Origin: Candidatus Latescibacterota bacterium
Lineage (GTDB): Bacteria > Latescibacterota > UBA2968 > UBA8231
Direction: 5' to 3'
Length of the DNA: 64,000 bases
Assembly (NCBI GenBank): GCA_965243025.1
Contig: CBDETY010000003.1
Span: 672,001-736,000, forward strand
Part shown: positions 52,588 to 63,642 of the stretch, piece after piece
Numbering within the stretch: the stretch's first letter is position 1
Layout: each line of letters begins with the position of its first letter
Notes under the pieces: model-generated
Databases searched by the model: none
The model's input: only the letters and a program-made list of their open reading frames with translations
Told to the model about the DNA's origin: nothing
Position numbers and translations under genes: made by a program

Positions 52588-53361
52588 TCACCCCTTCGGC
52601 ACCACCATGGCGCGGTCGCCGTAGGGGATCGTGTCCATCCCGGTGTCGTAGATGCGCTCGAGGAAATCGCGGTCCCACGGCCGCTCTGCGGCCGGCAGCC
52701 GCTCGACTTTTCCCTCCTTCAGGAAGATGAAGTGGTCCCCGTAGAGGAAGGCGCTGTTGGGGTCGTGGAGGACGGCGAGGACGGTGAGGTCGGCGTCGAC
52801 GAGCTCGCGGATCAGGCGCAGGAGGTGGGCCGAGTTGAGGAAGTCGAGGTGGGAGGTCGGCTCGTCCAGGAGAATGAGTCGCGGCTGCTGGGCGAGGACG
52901 CGGGCGATGCGGACCATCTGCTGCTCGCCGCCCGACAGCTCGGTGTAGGGGCGTTCTCTCAGGTGGAGGATGCCTATCCGCCGCAGGGCCTCGACGGCGA
53001 TATCGAGGTCCTCCTGCCTGGGCGCATAGCTCACGTAGCTGGCGCGGCCGGTCAGCACAACGTCCTCGACGGCGAAGGGGAAGACCGGGCGGTGATGCTG
53101 CGGCAGGTACCCGAGGACCTTTGCCCGCCCCCGGGTCGAGAAGGAGCGCAGCTCCTCCCCCATGATACGGACCTCGCCGCGGTCGAACTCGAGCATGCCC
53201 CCCAGGATGCGCATGAGCGTCGACTTGCCGCTGCCGTTCTTGCCGAGCAGCACCGTGAACTGCCCCGAGGGAATCTCGAGGGAGACCTCGTCGAGGATCG
53301 GCCTCTCCTCGTAGGCGAAGGAGAGCTTCTCGACCGTTATCGCCGGGGTCAGTCCTCCCAT
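52588..53361 (-). CDS. ABC ATP-binding protein, Fe-chelate/cobalamin type
   Basis: GKNGSGKS, LSGGEQQ, LLDEPT, HD; start at MGGLTP. Confidence 0.92.
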   Translation of the reverse strand: MGGLTPAITVEKLSFAYEERPILDEVSLEIPSGQFTVLLGKNGSGKSTLMRILGGMLEFDRGEVRIMGEELRSFSTRGRAKVLGYLPQHHRPVFPFAVEDVVLTGRASYVSYAPRQEDLDIAVEALRRIGILHLRERPYTELSGGEQQMVRIARVLAQQPRLILLDEPTSHLDFLNSAHLLRLIRELVDADLTVLAVLHDPNSAFLYGDHFIFLKEGKVERLPAAERPWDRDFLERIYDTGMDTIPYGDRAMVVPKG

Positions 53362-54356
53362 CCGATCCGCGCCCTCTTTAAAAGGAAAATGAAGAACGGC
53401 CCCCCGAGCAGGGTGGTGAAGACCCCGACCGGGATCTCGAAGGAGGCCAGCGTTCGCGAGCAGGTGTCGACGAGCAGCAGGAAGGCGCCGCCGAAGGCGA
53501 AGGACGCCGGCAGGGTGTGGCGGTTGTCCGGCCCCAGCAGCATGCGCACCATGTGCGGAACCGCCAGTCCGATCATGCCGATGACCCCGGCCACGGCGAT
53601 CGCCGCGGAGGCCGCAAGGGTCGCCGGCACCAGGATCAGCACCCGTTCCCGCTCCGGGTTCAGCCCGACCGCCCGGGTCTCCTCGTCCCCCTGGGCGAGC
53701 ACGTTCATGCGCCAGCGGAACAGGAACAGCCAGATGACGCCGATCCCGATCCCGGGGGCCGCGGAGCGCAGCTTTGCCCAGCTCGAGTTGTGCAGGTTGC
53801 CCATGGTCCAGTGGACGATGGTCTGCAGCTTGTAGGGGTCGGTGAGGAACTGGACGATGGTCAGCAGGGCGGTGAAGATACCGGTGACGATCACTCCCGA
53901 GAGGATCAGGGAGACCACCGACACGGTCTTGCGGGTGCGGGCCAGGAAGTAGGCGAGGCCGACGGCGAAAAGGGCGAAGCCGAAGGCGGTCGGCTGCACC
54001 GGCAGCAACGGCAGGCTCAGGGCGAGGGCGGCGCCGAAGGCGGCCCCGGAGGAGAGACCGAGGATGTAGGGGGCGACGAGGGGGTTGCGAAACAGCGCCT
54101 GCAGGGCGTTGCCGGCCGCCGCCAGAGAGCCTCCCACCAGGAAGGTGAGGATGATCCGGGGCATCCGCACCTCCCAGACAATGGTGCCGACCAGGGCCTC
54201 TTCCGGGCCGGGGGACGGCTCGCGGAAGACGAGGCCGTAGAGCCAGGACAGGATCTTCCCGGCCTCGGCGCTCGCGGACGGTCCCAGCAGCAGCGAGCCG
54301 AAGAGCACGGGCAGGGGAAAAAGGTAGATGACGCGGCGCCGCAGGGTGGCGTTCAT
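53349..54356 (-). CDS. FecCD/BtuC family ABC permease
   Basis: RMPR, QALFRNPL..P..LG.SSGA, GLAVPH, EIPVGV.T..LGGPFF. Confidence 0.93.
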   Translation of the reverse strand: MNATLRRRVIYLFPLPVLFGSLLLGPSASAEAGKILSWLYGLVFREPSPGPEEALVGTIVWEVRMPRIILTFLVGGSLAAAGNALQALFRNPLVAPYILGLSSGAAFGAALALSLPLLPVQPTAFGFALFAVGLAYFLARTRKTVSVVSLILSGVIVTGIFTALLTIVQFLTDPYKLQTIVHWTMGNLHNSSWAKLRSAAPGIGIGVIWLFLFRWRMNVLAQGDEETRAVGLNPERERVLILVPATLAASAAIAVAGVIGMIGLAVPHMVRMLLGPDNRHTLPASFAFGGAFLLLVDTCSRTLASFEIPVGVFTTLLGGPFFIFLLKRARIGWED

Positions 54357-54593: not shown

Positions 54594-54734
54594 AGGCATT
54601 GCAGCCCCTTTTCTGCCCAATTCCACCAGATGGAGGCCACTATGAAGTTCGTTTTGCTTTACCCAGGCATTGCAGCCAGATTCACTTTTTCCAATTCCAC
54701 CGGATGGAGGCCACAATGAAGTTCGTTTTGCTTT
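54594..54734 (+). repeat. tandem duplication (about 71-74 bp) of the RBS and first codons
   Basis: CCAATTCCACC(A/G)GATGGAGGCCAC(T/A)ATGAAGTTCGTTTTGCTTT at 54617 and 54691. Confidence 0.85.
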
Positions 54735-55321
54735 CCCTGATCGCCTGCGTTTTCACCCTGATCGCCTGCACCGACCGCGACCCTGTTTCTTCCAAACAGC
54801 CGGGGACGGACACGGAGGCGGCCGCCAAGCGCATCAGCAGCGCAAGGACCACGAGCGCTCCCGTAGCGGGTGTGGCCGAATCCAAGGACATGGATGACGG
54901 CATGGGCATGGACGACGAAGGGATGGACGACGAAGGGATGGACGACGAAGGGATGGACGACGAAGGGATGGACGACGAAGGGATGGACGACGAAGGGATG
55001 GACGACGAAGGGATGGATGACGAAGGGATGGATGACGAAGGGATGGATGACGAAGGGATGGATGACGAGGGCATGGATGACGAAGGGATGGATGACGAGG
55101 GCATGGACGACGAAGGGATGGACGACGAAGGGATGGATGACGAAGGGATGGACGACGAGGGTATGGACGACGAAGGGATGGATGACGAAGGGATGGACGA
55201 CGAGGGTATGGACGACGAAGGGATGGACGACGAGGGTATGGATGACGGTGGAACCGATGACGGTGGAACCGATGACGGTGGAACCGATGATGGAGGCACC
55301 GACGACTCCTCGGGTAGCTGA
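54716..55321 (+). CDS. lipoprotein with (MDDEG)22 acidic Met-rich repeat
   Basis: GGAGG RBS; MKFVLLSLIACVFTLIA-C lipobox; repeat occupies more than half of the protein. Confidence 0.8.
   Translation: MKFVLLSLIACVFTLIACTDRDPVSSKQPGTDTEAAAKRISSARTTSAPVAGVAESKDMDDGMGMDDEGMDDEGMDDEGMDDEGMDDEGMDDEGMDDEGMDDEGMDDEGMDDEGMDDEGMDDEGMDDEGMDDEGMDDEGMDDEGMDDEGMDDEGMDDEGMDDEGMDDEGMDDEGMDDGGTDDGGTDDGGTDDGGTDDSSGS
54908..55297 (+). repeat. 15-bp coding tandem repeat: 22 x MDDEG, then MDDGG and 3 x TDDGG
   Basis: ATGGA(C/T)GACGA(A/G)GG(G/C/T) units varying only at synonymous positions. Confidence 0.97.
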
Positions 55322-55386
55322 GGTAAGCGTTTGAGGATCGGCCCCTTGGTACAGGAGGTCGGTTCCGCATAGAACCAGGAACAGAC

Positions 55387-55428
55387 AGAAGAAGCCCCCG
55401 GTGGCCTTTGCCCCCGGGGGCTTCTTCT
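55387..55428 (+). terminator. intrinsic terminator-like hairpin
   Basis: AGAAGAAGCCCCCGG / CCGGGGGCTTCTTCT, 15-bp perfect inverted repeat. Confidence 0.8.
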
Positions 55429-55554
55429 ATAGAGGGGGAACTTCAGACTCGGTCCCGGCGTTTGCCAGGAAGCAGATGCGCATCATGAAAACCCTTCAGG
55501 CCCCGAAAGAAACAGATTCCGTTTTCTGCTCTTTTCGCCGAATGGAGGTTTCTC

Positions 55555-56434
55555 ATGAAGTTCCTTCTGTTTTCCCTGCTCGTTTGCGTCCTCACGCTTG
55601 GCGCGTGCACCGACCGCGACCCTGTTTCTTCCAATCACTCGTCCGTGGACCCGGAAGGGTCCGCCAAGCGCGTAAGCAGCGCCAGGACTACAAGCGTTCC
55701 TGTAGCGGGTCTTTCCGAGTCGCGGCCGAAGCCGCCCGAAATGTTGGACGAGGCGATGGGCCCGCAGGCGTTCAAGGTCGCGATCGAAAATGTCACCACC
55801 GGGGAAGCGCCTTATCACCTGGCCCCGGGCGTATTCGTCGTCCACAGGGACGGTCAGCCCCTGTTCACCGAGGGTGAAGTGGAGCGCGGCGAGGGCCTCG
55901 AACCCCTGGCTGAAGACGGCAATCCCGGGCCCCTCTCAAGCAATTGGCGCCACGGTGTTCAATACGCCCGAGGGCAGCGACATGCCCGGGCCCCTGGGCC
56001 CAGGTGGTGGAATGGGTCCGGGTAACAGCTACGTCTTCGAGTTCGAGGCCGGAGAGGGCAGCTACCTGTCGTTTGCCACCATGCTGGTCCAGTCAAACGA
56101 CCTGTTCTTCGCTCCCGATGCGACCGGTATCGCCCTGTTCGAGGACGGCTACCCCATCAAGGGGGAAATAACCGGCCGGATCATGCTCTGGGACGCCGGC
56201 ACCGAGGTCAACCAAGAGCCCGGGACCGGTCCCGATCAGCCGATGAATCAGTCCGGACCGAACACAGGTGAGGACGAGGGCGGCGCGGTTCGTCTGGTAG
56301 ACGACGAGTTCGAATACCCGGAGACCGCCAGCGTCATCGCGGTGACCATCACCCCCTTGAAGGGCATGATGGACGATGAAGACGGGATGGCTGGCGACGA
56401 CGACGGAATGGAGGACGACGAGACCGACGGCTGA
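55555..56434 (+). pseudogene. spondin_N-domain lipoprotein, frameshifted near 55940 (pseudogene or sequencing error)
   Basis: Lipobox LGAC; LAPGVFVVH, GLEPLAEDGNP, then +1 frame LSFATMLVQSNDLF, LWDAGTEVNQEPG; acidic Met-rich tail. Confidence 0.8.
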
Positions 56435-56505
56435 CGCAAGGCCAGCCTGGGAGAACCGGTTTTCTGGTACAGAAGGCCGGTTCCGGGAAGTAACGGAAAC
56501 ACCGG

Positions 56506-56547
56506 AAAGCCCCCGGGGGCCGGTATTGCCGCCGGGGGCTTTTTCTT
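56506..56547 (+). terminator. intrinsic terminator
   Basis: AAAGCCCCCGG / CCGGGGGCTTT plus T tract; homologous to the 55387 hairpin. Confidence 0.8.
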
Positions 56548-56678: not shown

Positions 56679-57767
56679 TCAGCCACTCCCCCCGCGGAGC
56701 AGCTTGAGGAACTTCCCCTGCTGGCTTGCCAGGGAGTACCCGGCCTCGACCCGTTCCCTTCCCTCACGGCCCATCCGCGCCCGCAGCTCGGGGTCGGCGG
56801 CCAGCGCCAACAGCTTCTCCTCCCACTGCTCATCGGTGCCGGCGAGGTACCCCGTGACTCCGTCCACCACGATTTCGGCGTTGATCCCGACCGGGCTTGC
56901 GACTACAGGCAAGGCGCTCGCCATGTACTGGAGCAGCTTGTACCCCCCCTTCCCGAGGGTCCAGGGATCTTCGGTAAGCGGCATGATCCCGATGTCGAAC
57001 CCGGACAGGTCGCCGCTCTCCTCCTCCAGCCTCCACTCCTTCCTCTCCACCGGCACCCCGGCCCAGGACCAGGAGGCCGCCCCGACGAGGCGCAGCCTGA
57101 TCCCGGGGCAGCGCTTCCCCAACCGCGCCAGGGGAACCTGCAGAAGGTCGAGGTACTGGGCCGACGAGGCGCTTCCGATCCACCCGACGACCACGGTCTC
57201 TCCGGCGCGCCTGCCGCCGGCAGGCGGGCGGATGGCCTCGGTATCCACCGGCCCCGTGATCCTGGTGACCCTGCAGTAGCGGGCGGCGTAGTTGCCGGTG
57301 TAGTCGTTCTCGACGACAGCCCCCTCCGCCAGCTTCAGCATCGCCGGCAGGCCGCGGCGGTTGCGGCGCTCCTTCCAGGCCGCGGTCCAGTGGAGGCCGC
57401 GGATCTCGCTGGTGAAGATGGCGTCGTCGAAGTCGAACAGCACCGGCGGCCGCCGCAACCGCAGCAGGACTCTCACAGGCCAGGGAAAGATGACCTTCTG
57501 GACGAACAGCAGGTCGAAGCCCAGGCTCGACCGCCAGGCTCGCCACCCGCACAGCAGGGTTCGCCACCAGGTGTGGATGTAATAGAAGATCTTGCGCCAG
57601 GGTCTCCGGGTCGCCAGTAGTCCGGAACCCTCGGTCCCGCCGTCCGGGACGACGGTGATCACCCGGGTCTCGAAGCCGTGACGGTGCAGGTAAGGGAGGT
57701 ACTGGAAGACCCGCGTCCGGCTGCTCGCCATCGATGGGCCGTACTGGGTTACGAACAGGACCCGCAT
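56679..57767 (-). CDS. glycosyltransferase family 4
   Basis: ASSRTRVFQY, FDFDDAIF, GWIGS, DIGIMPL, GKGGYKLLQYMA..LPVVASPVG. Confidence 0.92.
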   Translation of the reverse strand: MRVLFVTQYGPSMASSRTRVFQYLPYLHRHGFETRVITVVPDGGTEGSGLLATRRPWRKIFYYIHTWWRTLLCGWRAWRSSLGFDLLFVQKVIFPWPVRVLLRLRRPPVLFDFDDAIFTSEIRGLHWTAAWKERRNRRGLPAMLKLAEGAVVENDYTGNYAARYCRVTRITGPVDTEAIRPPAGGRRAGETVVVGWIGSASSAQYLDLLQVPLARLGKRCPGIRLRLVGAASWSWAGVPVERKEWRLEEESGDLSGFDIGIMPLTEDPWTLGKGGYKLLQYMASALPVVASPVGINAEIVVDGVTGYLAGTDEQWEEKLLALAADPELRARMGREGRERVEAGYSLASQQGKFLKLLRGGSG

Positions 57768-58059
57768 GAATCAGACCTCGGTGTGTCGGGAACGACCTCC
57801 TCCCCCGGTGTGTCCGCAGGTTCCGGCCCGGGGAAAGGGGCCTCCAATGCGAAGTCGCCCGGAGGCGGAAGGCCTTGAAAAGTCTACCAAATACAGTGCG
57901 CTTGTTGAACAGGGCGGGTATTCGCCCGGGGTGAGGCCCTGCTGTCCCGGTCACCTCCCATGGGCAAACAGGAAAATTTTTCCTTGATCCGGCATCCGGC
58001 GCGGCCGTTTTTAGCACCTCAAACGGGGCGGCATCCCAAGCCAATAAGGGAGGAGAAAG

Positions 58060-59427
58060 ATGAACACGGAGTTGAGTTCCCTCAGTGTCATTTTCACCGA
58101 GTTCTACTACTGGCTGACGGTGGTGCTCATGTTCTTCATCCACGTGGGGTTCTGCATGTACGAGGTCGGGGTCTCCCGGCACAAGAACCACGTACACACG
58201 CTGATGAAGAACACGATGCTGATACCGCTTGTCACCATCACGTTCTTCTTCTTCGGCTGGTGGATCTATTTCGCCTTCCCCAACGGCCCCGGCTTCACCG
58301 GCGGCCTCGTCGAGGCCCCTCACGCGGTCGCCTGGAGCGAGCTGATGGGCCCGCACATGGGGGGCGCCGGCGACCCCGACGGCTGGGCGCGGCTCAACGG
58401 GGTTTTCTGGGCGGCCTTTCTCCTGTTCTCCTGGACCGCGGCCTCCATCGTCTCCGGGTCGGTGATCGAGCGCATTCGCTCCTCGGCCTTCTGGATCCTG
58501 GCGATCCTGATCGGTTCGGTGTTCTGGGTCATCGACGCGGCCTGGGGATGGCACGCCGAAGGCTGGATGGTGAAGCTGCTCGGCTACCACGACGCCTATG
58601 CCTCCGGAGTGATCCACGCCATTGCCGGCGGCTTCGCCCTCGGCGTCCTGGTGGTGCTCGGTCCCCGCATCGGCAAGTTCGCCCCCGACGGCACCCCGAG
58701 AAGCCTGAACCCCCGCAATCCCTGGCTGGTGACCATCGGACTGTTCCTTATCTACACCGGCTTCTGGGGCTTCTACGTCGCCTGCAACGTGCCGATGTGG
58801 GACGTGCAGAGCGGCGACGGCAGCTTCTACTCGGCCACCAACATCTACCTCGCTCCCACGACCCTGTCGGCGATCACCGTGAACTTCCTCATGGCGCTGT
58901 CCGGCGGACTGCTCGCCGGTTACGTCATCTCCAGGGGGGACGCCTACTGGACCTATTCCTCCGGTCTGGCCGGCATCATCGCGGCGTCGGCCGGCAACGA
59001 CCTGTACCACCCGATCCAGGCGATGATCATCGCCGCCCTCGGCGTCCTGTTCATGTACAAGATGCACTACTGGGTCGAACGCCGGTTCAAGGTCGACGAC
59101 GCGGTCGGCGCGGTGGCGGTGCACGGCTACGCCGGGTTCTTCGGGGTCGTCATCTGCGGCTTCGTGCTCTGGGGCTATCCCTCCTCGCCGGACGACAGCT
59201 TCGCCAGCATCAATCCCCTGGGACAGATCGCCGGCGCCGTGATCATGTTCTTCGTGCTGGGCTTCATCCCGGGCTGGATCGCCGCAAAAATCTTAAACGC
59301 CTTGGGCGGGCTCCGCATTCCGCGCCAGATCGAGCTGGCGGGCCTCGACTTCGGCACCGCCCACGACCGCGCGCAGGAGGAGCAGGGCATCATCGACGCC
59401 GAGCGCGAGGAGCTCGGCAGGATCTGA
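58060..59427 (+). CDS. amt: ammonium transporter family protein (divergent Amt)
   Basis: About 11 TM; IVSGSVIER, GVIH, LGPRIGKF, DDAVGAVAVHG; GGAGGAG RBS. Confidence 0.9.
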   Translation: MNTELSSLSVIFTEFYYWLTVVLMFFIHVGFCMYEVGVSRHKNHVHTLMKNTMLIPLVTITFFFFGWWIYFAFPNGPGFTGGLVEAPHAVAWSELMGPHMGGAGDPDGWARLNGVFWAAFLLFSWTAASIVSGSVIERIRSSAFWILAILIGSVFWVIDAAWGWHAEGWMVKLLGYHDAYASGVIHAIAGGFALGVLVVLGPRIGKFAPDGTPRSLNPRNPWLVTIGLFLIYTGFWGFYVACNVPMWDVQSGDGSFYSATNIYLAPTTLSAITVNFLMALSGGLLAGYVISRGDAYWTYSSGLAGIIAASAGNDLYHPIQAMIIAALGVLFMYKMHYWVERRFKVDDAVGAVAVHGYAGFFGVVICGFVLWGYPSSPDDSFASINPLGQIAGAVIMFFVLGFIPGWIAAKILNALGGLRIPRQIELAGLDFGTAHDRAQEEQGIIDAEREELGRI

Positions 59428-59496
59428 TCCGTCCGATGTCCCCGAGGGGCGAGGAAATCGGAGCATAAACAGCATACCGGAATACGGGAGAAAGTC

Positions 59497-59730
59497 ATGA
59501 CTACGGGAAACGTCGAAAGCTGGGGGGGCAACATTTCCGAGATCGGCCCCCTGTACCCCTTCGTCGGTCTGGAGGGCCTGCTGTTCGTTGTCGGGTTGGC
59601 CCTGTGGATCGTCTGGCACGTCCTGCAGATCCGCACCGAGACGCAGAGCTACGAGGACGAGATTCAGAGGTTCGGCGACAAGGAGACGCTGCAGAAGATC
59701 CTCGACTCCGAGGATCCGTACGCTCCCTGA
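59497..59730 (+). CDS. small single-TM protein downstream of amt
   Basis: 77 aa, IGPLYPFVGLEGLLFVVGLALWIVWH; GGGAG RBS; strong GC3 bias. Confidence 0.75.
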   Translation: MTTGNVESWGGNISEIGPLYPFVGLEGLLFVVGLALWIVWHVLQIRTETQSYEDEIQRFGDKETLQKILDSEDPYAP

Positions 59731-59775
59731 GGAGCTTTCTTCAGCAGAAGCTGCAGGTTGTGGGGCCGGGCGGGT

Positions 59776-60171
59776 TCAATGTCCGGTTCCCGGTCCCGCA
59801 ACCCCCTCCACCCTGACCGGCGTCCCGGTCTTCGGCCGCCGCGCCCCAATCGCACAGTGTGCCTTCGCGGTCCCCGGGTTCGCATCTCGCGGAGTTGCGG
59901 GCTCGGCACAGACTGACCCGGTAGCCTCCGGGGCAGTGCCCACCTTCCGGCTCAGCTTTCTGCCCAGCTCCTGCGGCACATGGGGCCAGACTTCCGTCTC
60001 CAGAAATCGGCGCAACCGTTCTCCACGATCACTGCCGGCGCCCTCGCAGGCCAGCCGCGCCCGCCGCTCCTCCAGGGATCGGCGCACTGCCTCGGTCTTG
60101 CTCTCGCCGGTAAGCTGTGCGACCTCCCCGACAAGCCGCTCGACCTCCTTGTTCTTGATGTTCAGGCTCAT
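59776..60171 (-). CDS. vapB: VapB-like antitoxin (Rv0623/PSK type), orphan, aberrant C-terminus
   Basis: AGGAGG RBS; MSLNIKNKEVERL...LTGESKTEAVRRSLEER; no PIN toxin follows. Confidence 0.75.
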   Translation of the reverse strand: MSLNIKNKEVERLVGEVAQLTGESKTEAVRRSLEERRARLACEGAGSDRGERLRRFLETEVWPHVPQELGRKLSRKVGTAPEATGSVCAEPATPRDANPGTAKAHCAIGARRPKTGTPVRVEGVAGPGTGH

Positions 60172-60278
60172 AGTCCTCCTTCGCCGTGTCACCGGAACAA
60201 CCAGAGAAGCATGTCTGGAAGGAGATGGAAGAAAGGCAGAAAAAATCAACTATGGTGGAAAGCAGGGTCGGGCGCGCC

Positions 60279-61412
60279 TCAGCCCCGATCCGGCCCGGTG
60301 GGCAGGGGCGGCAGCTCCCCCAGGCGCCCCCCGTACAGCTTGTTGAGCAGGCCGGCCCGCAGGACCTCGGCGTCGTCTTCCGGGAATTTGTCCGGGTGGC
60401 ACCAGCGGGCAACGAGCTCGACGGTGAAGATGTACTTGAGGGTCCAGAAGTCGCAGGAGAACGGATCCGGCAGTTCGTGCACCCGCCCCTCGCGCACCGC
60501 GGAGAGGCTGCGCCAGCCGGCCATCTCGCCCACGTCCCCCGGTCCGAGGCGGTCGTTGCACCACATGACGATCAGCTCCGGGTTCCAGACGAGGACGTTC
60601 TCGAGGTTCACCAGCAGGCCTTCCAGCTCGCTGCCGGCGGCGACGTTGGTGCCCCCTGCCAGGTCGATCAGCTCCTGCACGGTGCTGTTGCGGCCGGCCG
60701 TCTGCAGCGGCCCCTGGGCCCACATGAAGTAGACCCGCGGCGGGTCGGGCGCCTCCCCTTCCACAGGGGCGATCTTGCGCCGCACCGTCTCCAGCTCCTC
60801 TTCGGCGATGGCGAGGAGCTCGGCGGCGCGCTCGCTGGTGCCGGTCAGCTCCCCGAGGGCGGCGATCTCCCGGTGGATGTCCTCGAAGCGCTCGATGAAG
60901 ACGCCGAAGACCGGGATCCCCTTCTCCTCGAGGGCCTCGATCGACTCCTCCTGCCCCGACCAGACGATGACGAGGTCGGGTTGCAGGGCCACCATGCTCT
61001 CGATGTTGACGAAGTCCCAGTTGCCCGGCGTCGCCAGGGTGCGGTCGCGGATGCGCTCGTCCATGGCCGCGTAGTAGGGGAAGACGCTGCCCTGGTAGAC
61101 GTTGGTGGAGATGCCGACGAGGCGGTCCTCGGCCCCGAGCATGTAGAGGCCGGTGAGGGCGCTTTCCAGCAGGCAGACGATGCGCTCGGCCGGCTTGTCG
61201 AGCTCGATGCGCTTGCCGCGGAAGTCGGTGGCGGCCACCCCTTCGGCGGCTGCTACCCCTTCCGGGGCAGCCGCCCCTTCCGCGGCGGCAACGTGGCCGG
61301 CGAGGAGGAGGGAGAGGGGAAGAAGAAGCAGCAGGGGGCGGAAAAGCAGAGGCCCCGCGGCGGCCGCTCCCGGTCGGGAAGGCGCCGCGGGGCCGCAGGC
61401 TGCAGCGGTCAC
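60279..61412 (-). CDS. ABC substrate-binding protein (Fe-siderophore/cobalamin class III)
   Basis: TDFRGKRI.L.KPAERIV, NIESMVALQPDLVI, W..LSAVREGRV; start uncertain. Confidence 0.9.
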   Translation of the reverse strand: MTAAACGPAAPSRPGAAAAGPLLFRPLLLLLPLSLLLAGHVAAAEGAAAPEGVAAAEGVAATDFRGKRIELDKPAERIVCLLESALTGLYMLGAEDRLVGISTNVYQGSVFPYYAAMDERIRDRTLATPGNWDFVNIESMVALQPDLVIVWSGQEESIEALEEKGIPVFGVFIERFEDIHREIAALGELTGTSERAAELLAIAEEELETVRRKIAPVEGEAPDPPRVYFMWAQGPLQTAGRNSTVQELIDLAGGTNVAAGSELEGLLVNLENVLVWNPELIVMWCNDRLGPGDVGEMAGWRSLSAVREGRVHELPDPFSCDFWTLKYIFTVELVARWCHPDKFPEDDAEVLRAGLLNKLYGGRLGELPPLPTGPDRG

Positions 61413-61423
61413 AGGCAGAAAGG

Positions 61424-63439
61424 CTAGAAGCTGACCATCAGACCGGCGTTGGTCGAGAAGCCGGGATCCTGGAATCCCCAGGGCATCTCGAAGGTCTGGT
61501 TCGTGAGGTTGTAGGGCTCCAGGAAGAGGGTCATATCATACCCGTCCCGGGTGCTGACGTCGTACTGGACACGGGCGTTCACCAGGACGTACCCGTCGAG
61601 GGGTTCGGCTGTCGGACTGATGTCCTGGTAGATGCCGCTGTAGGACTGCGCCGTGATCGTCGCCCGCAGGCCCTGGGCGAGGGTCAGGTGGACCCCGAGG
61701 CCGATGGCGCTGTCGGGGACGAAGTTGATCTTGGCGCCTTCCTTCTCTGGTTCCTCCGTGTTCTCGGTGACCTCGGCGTTGGTGTAGGTGTAGTTGGCGA
61801 ACCACTCCACCATGTCGCTGAGGCGGTGGGCGACCTCCAGCTCGGCGCCGTTGGTGGTGGTCTGGCCGGCGTTGATGTCCTGCGACTGCGCCGGATCATC
61901 CTCCGCAACAGGCACCACCCGCTGCACGATCTGGTCGGTGAGGGCGATGTTGAACCCGCGCACGCCGACCTGCAGGTCCTCCATCGGGCTGTAGTTCACG
62001 CCCAGGTCGATGCTGGTTCCCGACTCCGGCTTGATATCGGGGTTGGGCAGGTGGCCGCCCTTGCCGTCCGGAGGAACGGTGCCTCCAACCGACTTGAGGG
62101 AGGGGGCCTTGAAGCTGGTCCCCATGTTGGCGTACAGGCCGAGGTTGTCGCTCTGGTTGTAGCGCGCCCCGGCGCTGTAGAGAAGCTTGCCCCAGGAGTT
62201 GCTGGTCTCGTTCGGCGTCATTCCCTGCAACAGCTCGATGTCGTGGGCGATGCTGGTGAAGCGCGCCCCTGCCCGCAGGGTGAGGTTGTCCAGGCGGAAC
62301 TCCTCCTGGGCGTAGAGCCCGAAAGCGGTTGCGGTGGCGTCGTTTCCGGGGCTCACCTCGCCGGTCTCACGCTGCGTGGCGTACGAGGAGAGCTGGTAGT
62401 CGGCGCCCACGGTGAGCACGTCCGCCTCCCTGGTCAGGACGGTGAGGGAGACATCCGCCGGAATCACCGACTGGTCTACCCCGTCCTCGGAGCGCAGCTC
62501 GCGGCTCTTGGGATCCTCCCAGATGCCGTCCTCCTCCCAGCGCCGCACGTAGTCGCGGTACCCGACCTTGGCGTTGGCGGTGATCTTGTCGGAGACCGGG
62601 TGCACGTAGCCTGCGTTGAGGGTGGTGTAGGTGTGGCCGAAGTCCCGGTTGATACGGCCGGCGTCGCCGGTGTGCCAGGTGCGGTGGGCGTAGAGAGAAG
62701 CGCGCTGTCCGCTGTCGTTGAGGTAGTAGGTGCCGCGCATGTACAGCTTGGTCTTCTCGTACTCCGGGTTGTCGTCCATCTGCAGCCAGGAGCCTTCGGT
62801 GCCGTAGTCGGTGTAGTCGGAGTCCTCGTGGTGGCCGCCGAAGAAGAGGTGCAGGTTGCCGGCGGCGCGCTGGTGGAAGAAACGGCCCCCGATCGTCTTG
62901 TAGGAACCGCCGTACACCGAGGCGCTGGTGCGGGTGGTCCTCACCCGTTCCCGCAGGATGAAGTTGGCCGTGCCCGCCAGCGGGGACTGGTTGCCGGCGA
63001 AGTCCATGGCCAGGTAGGTCGGATAGAGGACGGAGGCGGAGCCGCGCTGGTCCTCCACGCGCTCAAAGGCCCAGGGGTCGAGGCTCTGGAGATCGACGAA
63101 AGCGTCGATCGGCAGACCGTCGAGCATGTACCCCTTGTAAGTGTGCGCGAGGCCGCCTGAGGAGCCCCAGTTGGCGTCGTTGCGGGACAGCACGTTGGCG
63201 AAGTTGCCCGGGCTGTACGAGAGAATCTCGGCGAGGTTGCCGTTGCCCTGGACCAGGGACCCGATCTCGTCGGAGGTGATGATGGAGATCTTCTGGGTCA
63301 CGTTGCCCGGCGTCTGCGGCAGCTTGGAGCCGGTGACGATGACCTCTTCCATCTCGGTGATCTCTCCCTCATGGTCGTCGGCGTAGGCGAGGCCGGCCCC
63401 GAGGCAGAGAGACAGCGGGATGCGGAGAAGCCGCTTCAT
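61424..63439 (-). CDS. TonB-dependent receptor
   Basis: Signal peptide, EEVIVTGS TonB-box region, plug (ERVE..RGSASVLY), PNPDIKPE, terminal Phe; GGAGG RBS. Confidence 0.93.
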   Translation of the reverse strand: MKRLLRIPLSLCLGAGLAYADDHEGEITEMEEVIVTGSKLPQTPGNVTQKISIITSDEIGSLVQGNGNLAEILSYSPGNFANVLSRNDANWGSSGGLAHTYKGYMLDGLPIDAFVDLQSLDPWAFERVEDQRGSASVLYPTYLAMDFAGNQSPLAGTANFILRERVRTTRTSASVYGGSYKTIGGRFFHQRAAGNLHLFFGGHHEDSDYTDYGTEGSWLQMDDNPEYEKTKLYMRGTYYLNDSGQRASLYAHRTWHTGDAGRINRDFGHTYTTLNAGYVHPVSDKITANAKVGYRDYVRRWEEDGIWEDPKSRELRSEDGVDQSVIPADVSLTVLTREADVLTVGADYQLSSYATQRETGEVSPGNDATATAFGLYAQEEFRLDNLTLRAGARFTSIAHDIELLQGMTPNETSNSWGKLLYSAGARYNQSDNLGLYANMGTSFKAPSLKSVGGTVPPDGKGGHLPNPDIKPESGTSIDLGVNYSPMEDLQVGVRGFNIALTDQIVQRVVPVAEDDPAQSQDINAGQTTTNGAELEVAHRLSDMVEWFANYTYTNAEVTENTEEPEKEGAKINFVPDSAIGLGVHLTLAQGLRATITAQSYSGIYQDISPTAEPLDGYVLVNARVQYDVSTRDGYDMTLFLEPYNLTNQTFEMPWGFQDPGFSTNAGLMVSF

Positions 63440-63642
63440 GGGAATTCCTCCCGTGTGTGAAAGGGTGCGGGTTGTCGGTGCTGTATATTCGGTGCCCGGC
63501 TGGACAGCCGGAATCTGAGCGGGGAAAGTAATCAGAAAGTAACGAAAAGAGACTCGAAGCAACAAAAAGAGGCTCGCTTCACCTGACCGCCTTTCCGGCC
63601 GCATCGAGGTGGACAGCAGAAGAGGGAAAGGAAGATGTGGAG

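Follow-up and report, generated by a model that had tools for sequence, protein, structure and literature searches.

What does a lipoprotein do whose exported part consists largely of one five-residue motif, MDDEG, repeated 22 times, and is the array held by selection or by chance? The question is raised by a locus of Candidatus Latescibacterota bacterium (assembly GCA_965243025.1, contig CBDETY010000003.1), where two adjacent genes, here called copy 1 and copy 2, begin with the same lipoprotein leader and lie beside an iron-chelate type of importer. Our analyses cover the surrounding 64,000 nucleotides (nt), referred to as the window (contig positions 672,001 to 736,000), together with related genomes and database proteins. 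Comparison of alleles points to protein-level selection on the acidic tail of copy 1, for which cation binding is the leading, though tentative, role; copy 2, which carries a spondin domain, is decaying.

The repeat array of copy 1

Copy 1 is an intact gene predicted to encode a lipid-anchored protein without a folded domain. The product begins with a signal peptide and lipobox (…FTLIAC, with the Cys at residue 18), followed by 39 further residues and then by pure low complexity, in the order DMDDGMG, 22 exact contiguous MDDEG units, MDDGG, three TDDGG units, and TDDSSGS. In substrates of signal peptidase II, the lipobox has the form [LVI][ASTVI][GAS]C and closes an N-terminal signal peptide; copy 1 reads MKFVLLSLIACVFTLIAC and copy 2 reads ...LTLGAC, both in agreement with this pattern. 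The protein thus divides into a leader of 57 residues and a tail of 144 residues composed of Met, Asp, Glu, and Gly. Asp and Glu together supply 55% of the tail, Gly 23%, and Met 17%, and its net charge is about -79. The tail contains no basic residues and no His, and the mature part contains no Cys.

Judged by its sequence, copy 1 is a member of no described family. Neither Pfam nor NCBIfam returned a family above its cutoff, and the best scores from a query of the ESM Atlas (0.77 to 0.79) lie under the meaningful level. The Ca2+-binding repeats of RTX proteins are Gly/Asp-rich nonapeptides of the form GGxGxDxUx; copy-1 units, at 5, 7, or 8 residues, do not show this pattern, and no repeat family in Pfam or NCBIfam was matched.

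Tandem Repeats Finder (TRF) describes the array as having a period of 15 nt, 22.7 copies, and 92% matches. The 22 exact units occur in four DNA forms whose differences are confined to unit positions 6, 12, and 15, and a codon table shows every one of them to be synonymous. An MDDEG unit allows 45 single-base changes, of which only 6 are silent, and the probability that three or four independent changes would all be silent is ~0.0003 to 0.005, a figure that shows only that the variation in the homogenized core is silent, the 22 units having been chosen for being MDDEG. The edges of the array do hold nonsynonymous units (MDDGMG, MDDGG, TDDGG three times, and TDDSS). The count of 22 rests on the assembly, as a short-read contig ends ~69 nt left of position 55330, inside the 3' edge of the array.

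Turnover of repeat units among copy-1 alleles

Seven copy-1 alleles were compared, from this genome, from two other genomes of the same genus (G001 and G002), and from four database proteins. No two carry the same array: MDDEG appears 22 times in this genome, MDDGEEDG and TEDGEEDG make up the 6 units of G001, and G002 has 6 units of MAEEDDG, as against 5 in P0121, which is otherwise identical to it. P0139 has 12 units of MDGEEDG, P0125 has 3 to 4 units of MEDGxxDG, and P0143 has 3 Met units followed by 5 of TDDGG. As P0143 has the same leader type as copy 1 and only 3 Met units, the 22-fold expansion is young.

Despite this turnover, the frame is open in all seven alleles, and their composition is uniform, with 43 to 55% Asp+Glu, 19 to 32% Gly, at most one Lys, Arg, or His, and in no case His. 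In every allele Met heads most units, at a spacing of 5, 7, or 8 residues, and the sequence TDDS[ST] stands at the C terminus or within 2 residues of it. The tails range from 47 to 144 residues in length and contain 3 to 25 Met. Met recurs as well in all six copy-2 tails. All three genomes of the genus have copy 1 in the same location, where it diverges from a FecCD-type permease gene; copy 2 is intact in one of these genomes, broken in another, and not found at the locus in the third.

The tail therefore evolves by slippage, with the type and number of units differing in each allele; what persists is the frame, the acidity, the Met that opens most units, and the terminal TDDS. Since variation in the core is synonymous only and the frame stays open in seven of seven alleles through full replacement of the units, copy 1 is probably under protein-level selection, acting on composition and periodicity rather than on exact sequence. 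The first-pass annotation, made from the letters of this DNA, had already read copy 1 as 22 MDDEG repeats that vary at synonymous sites, with no folded domain and with selection at the protein level, and these points are borne out by the codon table, the family searches, and the alleles, respectively. Its description of Met/Asp-rich C termini in both copies agrees with their composition, and the length variability that it anticipated is seen in the range of tail lengths and in the single unit that separates P0121 from its sister species.

Candidate functions of the copy-1 tail

By its sequence, copy 1 would encode a selected, fast-evolving, lipid-anchored, putatively disordered polyanion, and we take binding of cations to be its most likely function, with a confidence that falls a little short of even. 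Anchored in one of the envelope membranes, the tail would form a disordered brush of negative charge that binds or concentrates chiefly hard cations (Ca2+, Mg2+, and perhaps Fe3+), and the Met thioethers may add some affinity for soft metals. Hard cations are favored because carboxylates make up about half of the chain, His and Cys are absent, and the domain of the parent gene belongs to a Ca2+-binding fold class. Several considerations weigh against this assignment. Slippage of units of 15, 21, or 24 nt preserves the frame without any selection; the 22-fold expansion is recent, given the few Met units of P0143; the seven alleles come from one genus-level clade and so are not independent; and the one-unit difference in P0121, which lies on a 921-nt contig, could be an assembly collapse. 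Among the listed sequencing runs that contain the stretch, none is recorded as RNA. Moreover, the binding of hard cations leaves the Met that begins units in every allele unexplained, and Mg2+ and Ca2+ at the levels of seawater would saturate any low-affinity site.

The periodic Met could instead bind Cu(I) or Ag(I), and the tail, like SilE and PcoE, would then buffer or detoxify the copper of the envelope; the placing of Met at the head of most units in all seven copy-1 alleles and its recurrence in six of six copy-2 tails would fit such a role. In the part of the published description available to us, SilE is a disordered periplasmic metal sponge with His and Met motifs (PMC5008109). The first-pass annotation had named both Cu(I)/Ag(I) and Ca2+ as ligands; the tail has no His or Cys to back the former, its Met count swings from 3 to 25 among alleles, and some unit Met have become Thr through ATG-to-ACG changes, all of which would argue against the Cu(I)/Ag(I) half of that idea. 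Mets motifs have the spacing MxM or MxxM, whereas Met recurs here every 5 to 8 residues. There are also no cop, cus, or sil genes among the annotated neighbors and no sequence match to any family, and we consider a copper or silver sponge unlikely. The conserved Met is equally unexplained if the tail is a physical brush that binds no specific ligand and shields the cell by its charge or bulk, for instance from phage and host cells or from adhesion and mineral crusts inside the sponge. The conservation of composition but not of sequence, the freely varying length, the acidic, Ser, Thr, or Gly linkers in other members of the leader family (such as P0168), and a second exported polyanion in the genome all agree with shielding; nevertheless, 27 of the 57 proteins with this leader are Peripla_BP_6 binding proteins, a class that normally works in the periplasm, and pure shielding seems improbable to us.

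It is also conceivable that copy 1 has no function and is a domain-less remnant of a duplication in which the array drifts by slippage. It has no folded domain, its repeats turn over rapidly, the 22-fold array is unique to this genome, and a tandem duplication of 74 nt, together with the loss of 2 nt from copy 2, shows how readily this locus slips and duplicates. Yet the frame is open in all seven alleles, whereas the sister gene has decayed in two of three genomes; the core varies at synonymous sites only (P of ~0.0003 to 0.005); the ribosome-binding site (RBS), 3' hairpin, and terminator are conserved; and the composition has been kept under three different unit lengths. We therefore rate neutral drift as quite unlikely. 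The poorest candidate is an accessory role for the neighboring importer, in which the polyanion would capture a metal or metal chelate and hand it to the FecCD-type ATP-binding cassette (ABC) transporter. The divergent arrangement with the permease gene is kept in all three genomes of the genus, but a Peripla_BP_2 binding protein and a TonB-dependent receptor already belong to the importer, permeases of this type transport chelates and not free cations, and the importer genes are contiguous in a sister genus, so that their adjacency to copy 1 reflects an insertion; such a role is very improbable. Cation binding under selection for composition is thus the reading that we retain.

The second polyanion in this genome (L104 507-2237; G000:C3:964911-966641) has a signal peptide, D31, and ~360 amino acids (aa) of DEG/DEN repeats, and it carries a sorting domain of the type IX secretion system (T9SS), TIGR04183, at 31.7 bits against a cutoff of 23. 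Acidic polymers are therefore predicted to be exported by two routes. The repeats of this protein weakly match collagen models through their Gly period.

Comparison with known acidic and metal-binding proteins

In its mode of action, copy 1 would most resemble acidic, disordered cation binders such as SilE/PcoE and the Asp-rich matrix proteins of animals. As predicted for the copy-1 tail, SilE and PcoE are exported, disordered, low-complexity, Met-containing, and acidic proteins that have been proposed to soak up metal in the envelope, so far as the accessible portion of the source describes them (PMC5008109). Unlike the tail, SilE has in that portion both His and Met motifs, folds on binding Ag+, is neither lipid-anchored nor a tandem repeat, and is encoded in a resistance operon. 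The copy-1 tail contains no His and has no sequence similarity to SilE, and its gene has an ABC importer, a glycosyltransferase, and an ammonium transporter as neighbors, which places it outside the SilE type of sponge. The Asp-rich matrix proteins of animal shells, corals, and otoliths share with the tail an extreme content of Asp, Glu, and Gly, fast evolution of repeat length, and the disorder that is predicted for the tail; as far as our partial sources go, they are secreted by eukaryotes and associated with a mineral, whereas copy 1 is lipid-anchored, has periodic Met, and has no known mineral. In relation to NF038123 proteins and the F-spondin (FS) domain of animals (3d34 and 3q13), copy 2 and its orthologs carry both the domain and the fold, and copy 1 has lost the domain.

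If the tail does bind cations, the locus would show, in a small natural setting, selection that holds composition and periodicity rather than sequence: a single genus has exchanged the repeat unit several times, and the sister gene decaying alongside acts as a built-in control. Studies of metal binding would gain a simple peptide scaffold, and there would be a hint at how symbionts of marine sponges handle cations at the cell surface.

A leader module shared by unrelated lipoproteins

The leader is a less expected result than the repeat. The first-pass annotation had noted an N terminus common to both genes, and the leaders are indeed similar (66% identity between the proteins and 80% mean column identity over the aligned 5' DNA), but the module is not specific to the pair. 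A tblastn search followed by a six-frame profile scan places a leader of 55 to 57 residues at exactly 9 loci in the genome (E of 1e-23 or lower, with the next match at 0.14), and a profile search of a 5.8-billion-protein collection finds it in 57 proteins. The mature parts that follow it are unrelated: in the genome, they comprise two Peripla_BP_6 proteins, one Cache protein, one weak NigD-like match, three without a family, the spondin protein, and copy 1, and in the collection, 27 Peripla_BP_6, 5 Cache, 5 spondin, 4 copy-1-like, and 16 other proteins.

Two blocks of the leader are conserved. The Cys is invariant in all nine genomic leaders, and the motif C-[SGT]-[DE]-[RG]-D-P-V-S-S begins at this residue in 55 of the 57 proteins; a second block, KRISSxxTxSAPVAGLAESR, lies ~25 residues farther on (range, 25 to 35). 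No Pfam or NCBIfam model covers the leader, which AlphaFold models as disordered. Matches at an E value of 0.001 or lower occur in 9 of 41 related genomes, and those below 1e-20 are confined to the three genomes of the genus (9 of 9 in this genome, G000; 6 of 10 in G001; and 3 of 6 in G002). Apart from the leader itself and a generic ABC ATPase, the nine loci have no neighbor in common, so no dedicated partner gene was found around them. The two Peripla_BP_6 members with the leader adjoin none of the four BPD_transp_2 matches, and one small member of unknown fold does adjoin one.

In three database proteins (P0168, P0154, and P0142), Ser/Asp/Gly or Thr/Asp repeats have expanded in the stretch that joins the leader to a folded domain, and repeat-prone acidic linkers therefore appear to be a general trait of the leader family. 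Two genes of 226 aa with the leader and without a known domain (L005 and L007, at G000:C3 ~3008000 and ~994000) encode proteins that are 96.5% identical and sit in a duplicated stretch of 1.6 kb with 94.6% DNA identity.

The leader resembles the lipoprotein export signal (LES) of Bacteroidota in having an acidic motif after the lipidated Cys. In the portion of the source available to us, the LES consensus is SDDDD or SDDFE, with an optimum of C-X-K-(D/E)2 (PMC5080379). In the leader, position +2 is Ser, Gly, or Thr, position +3 is Asp or Glu (49 of 55), position +4 is Arg or Gly, and position +5 is Asp (52 of 55), so that the acidic residues are mostly nonadjacent; two genomic members read C-S-K-E-D, which fits the published optimum. 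The leader differs from the LES in being far longer, in having a second conserved motif 25 to 35 residues on, in being fused to binding proteins of the periplasmic type, and in its host, which is not a member of the Bacteroidota (the sources of related proteins name Latescibacterota). The leader is probably a sorting or tether signal that copies 1 and 2 have in common with other lipoproteins, with no bearing on the function of the tail.

It may matter more than the repeat, being a conserved, disordered module of 55 residues on unrelated lipoproteins that could mark a route of lipoprotein sorting or processing in a poorly known phylum. A bolder view takes both elements as undescribed: a class of lipid-anchored Met/Asp/Glu/Gly polyanions acting as mixed hard- and soft-metal sponges of the envelope in sponge-associated bacteria, with the unit reinvented in each lineage and composition and Met periodicity held by selection, together with a new bipartite lipoprotein leader (C-S-D-R-D-P-V-S-S ... 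K-R-I-S-S-x-x-T-x-S-A-P-V-A-G-L-A-E-S-R) that would serve binding proteins, Cache-domain proteins, and others as a signal for sorting, tethering, or processing. We regard this combination as a long shot; were it true, lipoprotein targeting of the export-signal kind would extend beyond Bacteroidota.

Decay of the spondin-domain copy

Copy 2 was initially taken for the intact partner of copy 1, an interpretation that does not survive: in this genome it is a recent, polymorphic pseudogene, split by a 2-nt deletion into two frames, whereas G001 has a single intact gene of 357 residues at the equivalent place. Contigs from sequencing runs X1, X4, and X6 carry the deletion with no differences from the window; X1 and X4 belong to one study, possibly the source of the assembly, and X6 belongs to another. 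In a contig from run X5, from a third study (949 nt, depth of 3, two other letters changed), TG is inserted behind position 55933 and the frame is restored. Because the independent contigs of X1, X4, and X6 have the deletion and that of X5 has the intact form, the frameshift is a real allele and not an assembly error. A near-identical database protein of 293 residues, P0002, is intact and reads GNPGPLSQAIG across the deletion site. The spondin copy is dispensable, being broken here by a polymorphic deletion and missing in one sister species.

The spondin domain itself, the other part of the first reading of copy 2, stands. NCBIfam model NF038123 matches frame 1 over profile positions 2 to 56 (E = 1.8e-8) and frame 2 over positions 70 to 206 (E = 1e-27; 97.6 bits against a cutoff of 40), and it matches the intact ortholog over positions 2 to 206 at 145.7 bits. 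Neither piece of copy 2 matches Pfam Spondin_N (PF06468) at an E value of 1 or lower, and searches of the PDB by sequence, with the single protein and then with a profile, returned no match for the domain. In an AlphaFold model of the intact ortholog, the core has a predicted local distance difference test (pLDDT) score of mostly 66 to 92, and residues 1 to 57 (the leader) and most of residues 287 to 357 (the tail) fall below 50 and are modeled as disordered. The three best Foldseek matches to this model are 3d34_B, 3d34_A, and 3q13_A (E = 4.7e-7 to 7.5e-6, probability of 1.00, and template modeling [TM] scores of 0.58 to 0.63 normalized to the target), and the fourth has an E value of 0.03. 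These PDB entries are the FS domains of mindin and F-spondin, and the title of 3q13 describes it as Ca2+-binding. The assignment of a spondin/FS domain to copy 2 is sound.

The family of bacterial spondin-domain proteins, to which copy 2 belongs as an ordinary member, is large and uncharacterized; 2138 of 8000 scored proteins match at an E value of 0.001 or lower. Most of the homologs listed are ~430 to 470 aa long, and 5 of 120 carry PF06468. A search of main texts found no description of the function of the bacterial spondin domain, and searches on Met-rich or Asp-rich lipoprotein repeats and on sponge lipoproteins of Latescibacteria, likewise with supplements outside their scope, returned nothing relevant. 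Two distant homologs, P0004 and P0017, have two spondin domains and no acidic tail; in P0004, whose source names a Latescibacteria metagenome-assembled genome, the two domains follow the leader. In the spondin ortholog P0006, a further domain of ~120 residues lies past the Met/Asp stretch, which there is an interdomain linker.

Origin of the pair

Similarity between the two genes extends from the leader to the 3' hairpin and terminator, which are homologous in five genes (copies 1 and 2 of this genome, copies 1 and 2 of G001, and copy 1 of G002). In addition, the copy-1 end, GTDDSSGS, resembles the end of the intact G001 copy-2 tail, a stretch of ~85 to 90 residues of Met, Asp, and Gly that ends in GTDDSSSGS. 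These resemblances support the origin by duplication that the first-pass annotation had put forward, and the pair probably arose by tandem duplication. In the simplest history that the sequences allow, a lipoprotein with leader and spondin domain would first have gained an acidic, Met-containing tail, the gene for this tailed protein would then have been duplicated in tandem, and one copy would have lost its spondin domain to become copy 1, which by this evidence descends from a spondin gene. The leaders of both copies also hold genome-specific residues that their orthologs lack (SSARTTS here and SSSITLS in G001), which points to gene conversion between the tandem copies.

Neighboring genes and flanking elements

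The positions of all features are collected in Table 1. The gene divergent from copy 1 encodes the permease of an ABC system that is, by its sequence, a FecCD/BtuC-type importer of chelated iron, heme, or corrinoid and not of free cations; the nearest NCBIfam models of the permease system are of the BtuC, FhuB, and heme types, all below cutoff. The suggestion that the pair lies beside a metal uptake system is accordingly right as to position, but the importer is of the chelate type and has its own binding protein. The permease is separated from the binding protein and receptor by a block of ~6 kb that contains copies 1 and 2 together with an Rv0623-like (PSK_trans_fac) gene, a 77-aa open reading frame (ORF), an ammonium transporter gene, and a glycosyltransferase gene (56679-60279). 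In a sister genus (G004, L102), the uptake operon is unbroken: the receptor, the binding protein, and the permease are encoded side by side on the same strand, with no copy-1-like gene between them. The adjacency seen here therefore came about by insertion into the operon and says little in favor of a functional link.

Table 1. Features of the locus, with positions counted from the first nucleotide of the window
Feature	Position	Strand	Basis or remark
FecCD-type permease (53349-54356) and its ABC ATPase	52588..54356	-	Pfam FecCD 1.3e-82, ABC_tran 5e-31; divergent from copy 1
Two 47-nt direct repeats, spaced 74 nt, 94% identical	54617..54737	+	Duplicate RBS and first seven codons of copy 1
Copy 1, lipoprotein gene, 201 aa	54716..55321	+	ORF, translation, composition
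Copy-1 leader, 57 aa: signal peptide, lipobox LIAC (Cys18), TDRDPVSS ... KRISSARTTSAPVAGVAESK	54716..54886	+	9-copy alignment, hidden Markov model scan
22 exact MDDEG units, 15 nt each, four synonymous DNA variants	54908..55237	+	TRF, codon table
Degenerate 3' units MDDGG, TDDGG (three), TDDSS, then GS	55238..55318	+	...GTDDSSGS end common to relatives
Conserved 13-bp hairpin directly past the copy-1 stop codon	55335..55366	+	RNAalifold, five genes
Terminator hairpin, copy 1	55390..55429	+	Terminator search, five-gene alignment
Copy 2, spondin-domain lipoprotein gene, frameshifted	55555..56434	+	Two overlapping frames, 55555-56025 and 55790-56434
FS-type domain, split by the frameshift	55768..56347	+	NF038123 profile
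2-nt deletion site (frameshift)	55933..55934	+	DNA alignment to intact G001 ortholog
Short Met/Asp tail of copy 2, MMDDEDGMAGDDDGMEDDETDG	56366..56431	+	Translation, composition
Conserved post-stop hairpin of copy 2	56453..56484	+	RNAalifold, five genes
Terminator hairpin, copy 2	56507..56547	+	Terminator search, five-gene alignment
Peripla_BP_2 binding protein (60279-61412) and TonB-dependent receptor (61424-63604)	60279..63604	-	Same uptake system

Upstream of copy 1, the 47-nt duplication creates an ORF of 25 codons (54642-54719) whose TGA overlaps the ATG of copy 1. Among the three genomes of the genus, these direct repeats are present in this one only. A scan for sigma-70 promoters returned no sites, and other promoter types may be in use. 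Rfam gave no match at its gathering score anywhere in the window, and the 359 nt separating the permease gene from copy 1 accordingly contain no riboswitch.

Homologous 3' regions with a terminator had been noticed at the outset, and the same hairpins do recur in the five genes compared. The 3' regions common to both copies consist of GGAYCGGCC..CTGGTACAGGAGGYCGGTT and a hairpin, AAGCCCCCGG...CCGGGGGCTTTTT. Matches to the hairpin core, TGGTACAGGAGG, at no more than 3 mismatches number eight in the genome, of which two are the copies themselves and six look like chance. A metagenome scan with this core yielded 57 loci, none of which encodes the leader, and these were set aside as chance matches. 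The 13-bp hairpin past the stop codon is kept in all five genes, with one compensatory pair, despite wholly different coding tails, and it may be an element for mRNA stability or binding. A terminator of 17 bp is likewise common to all five genes.

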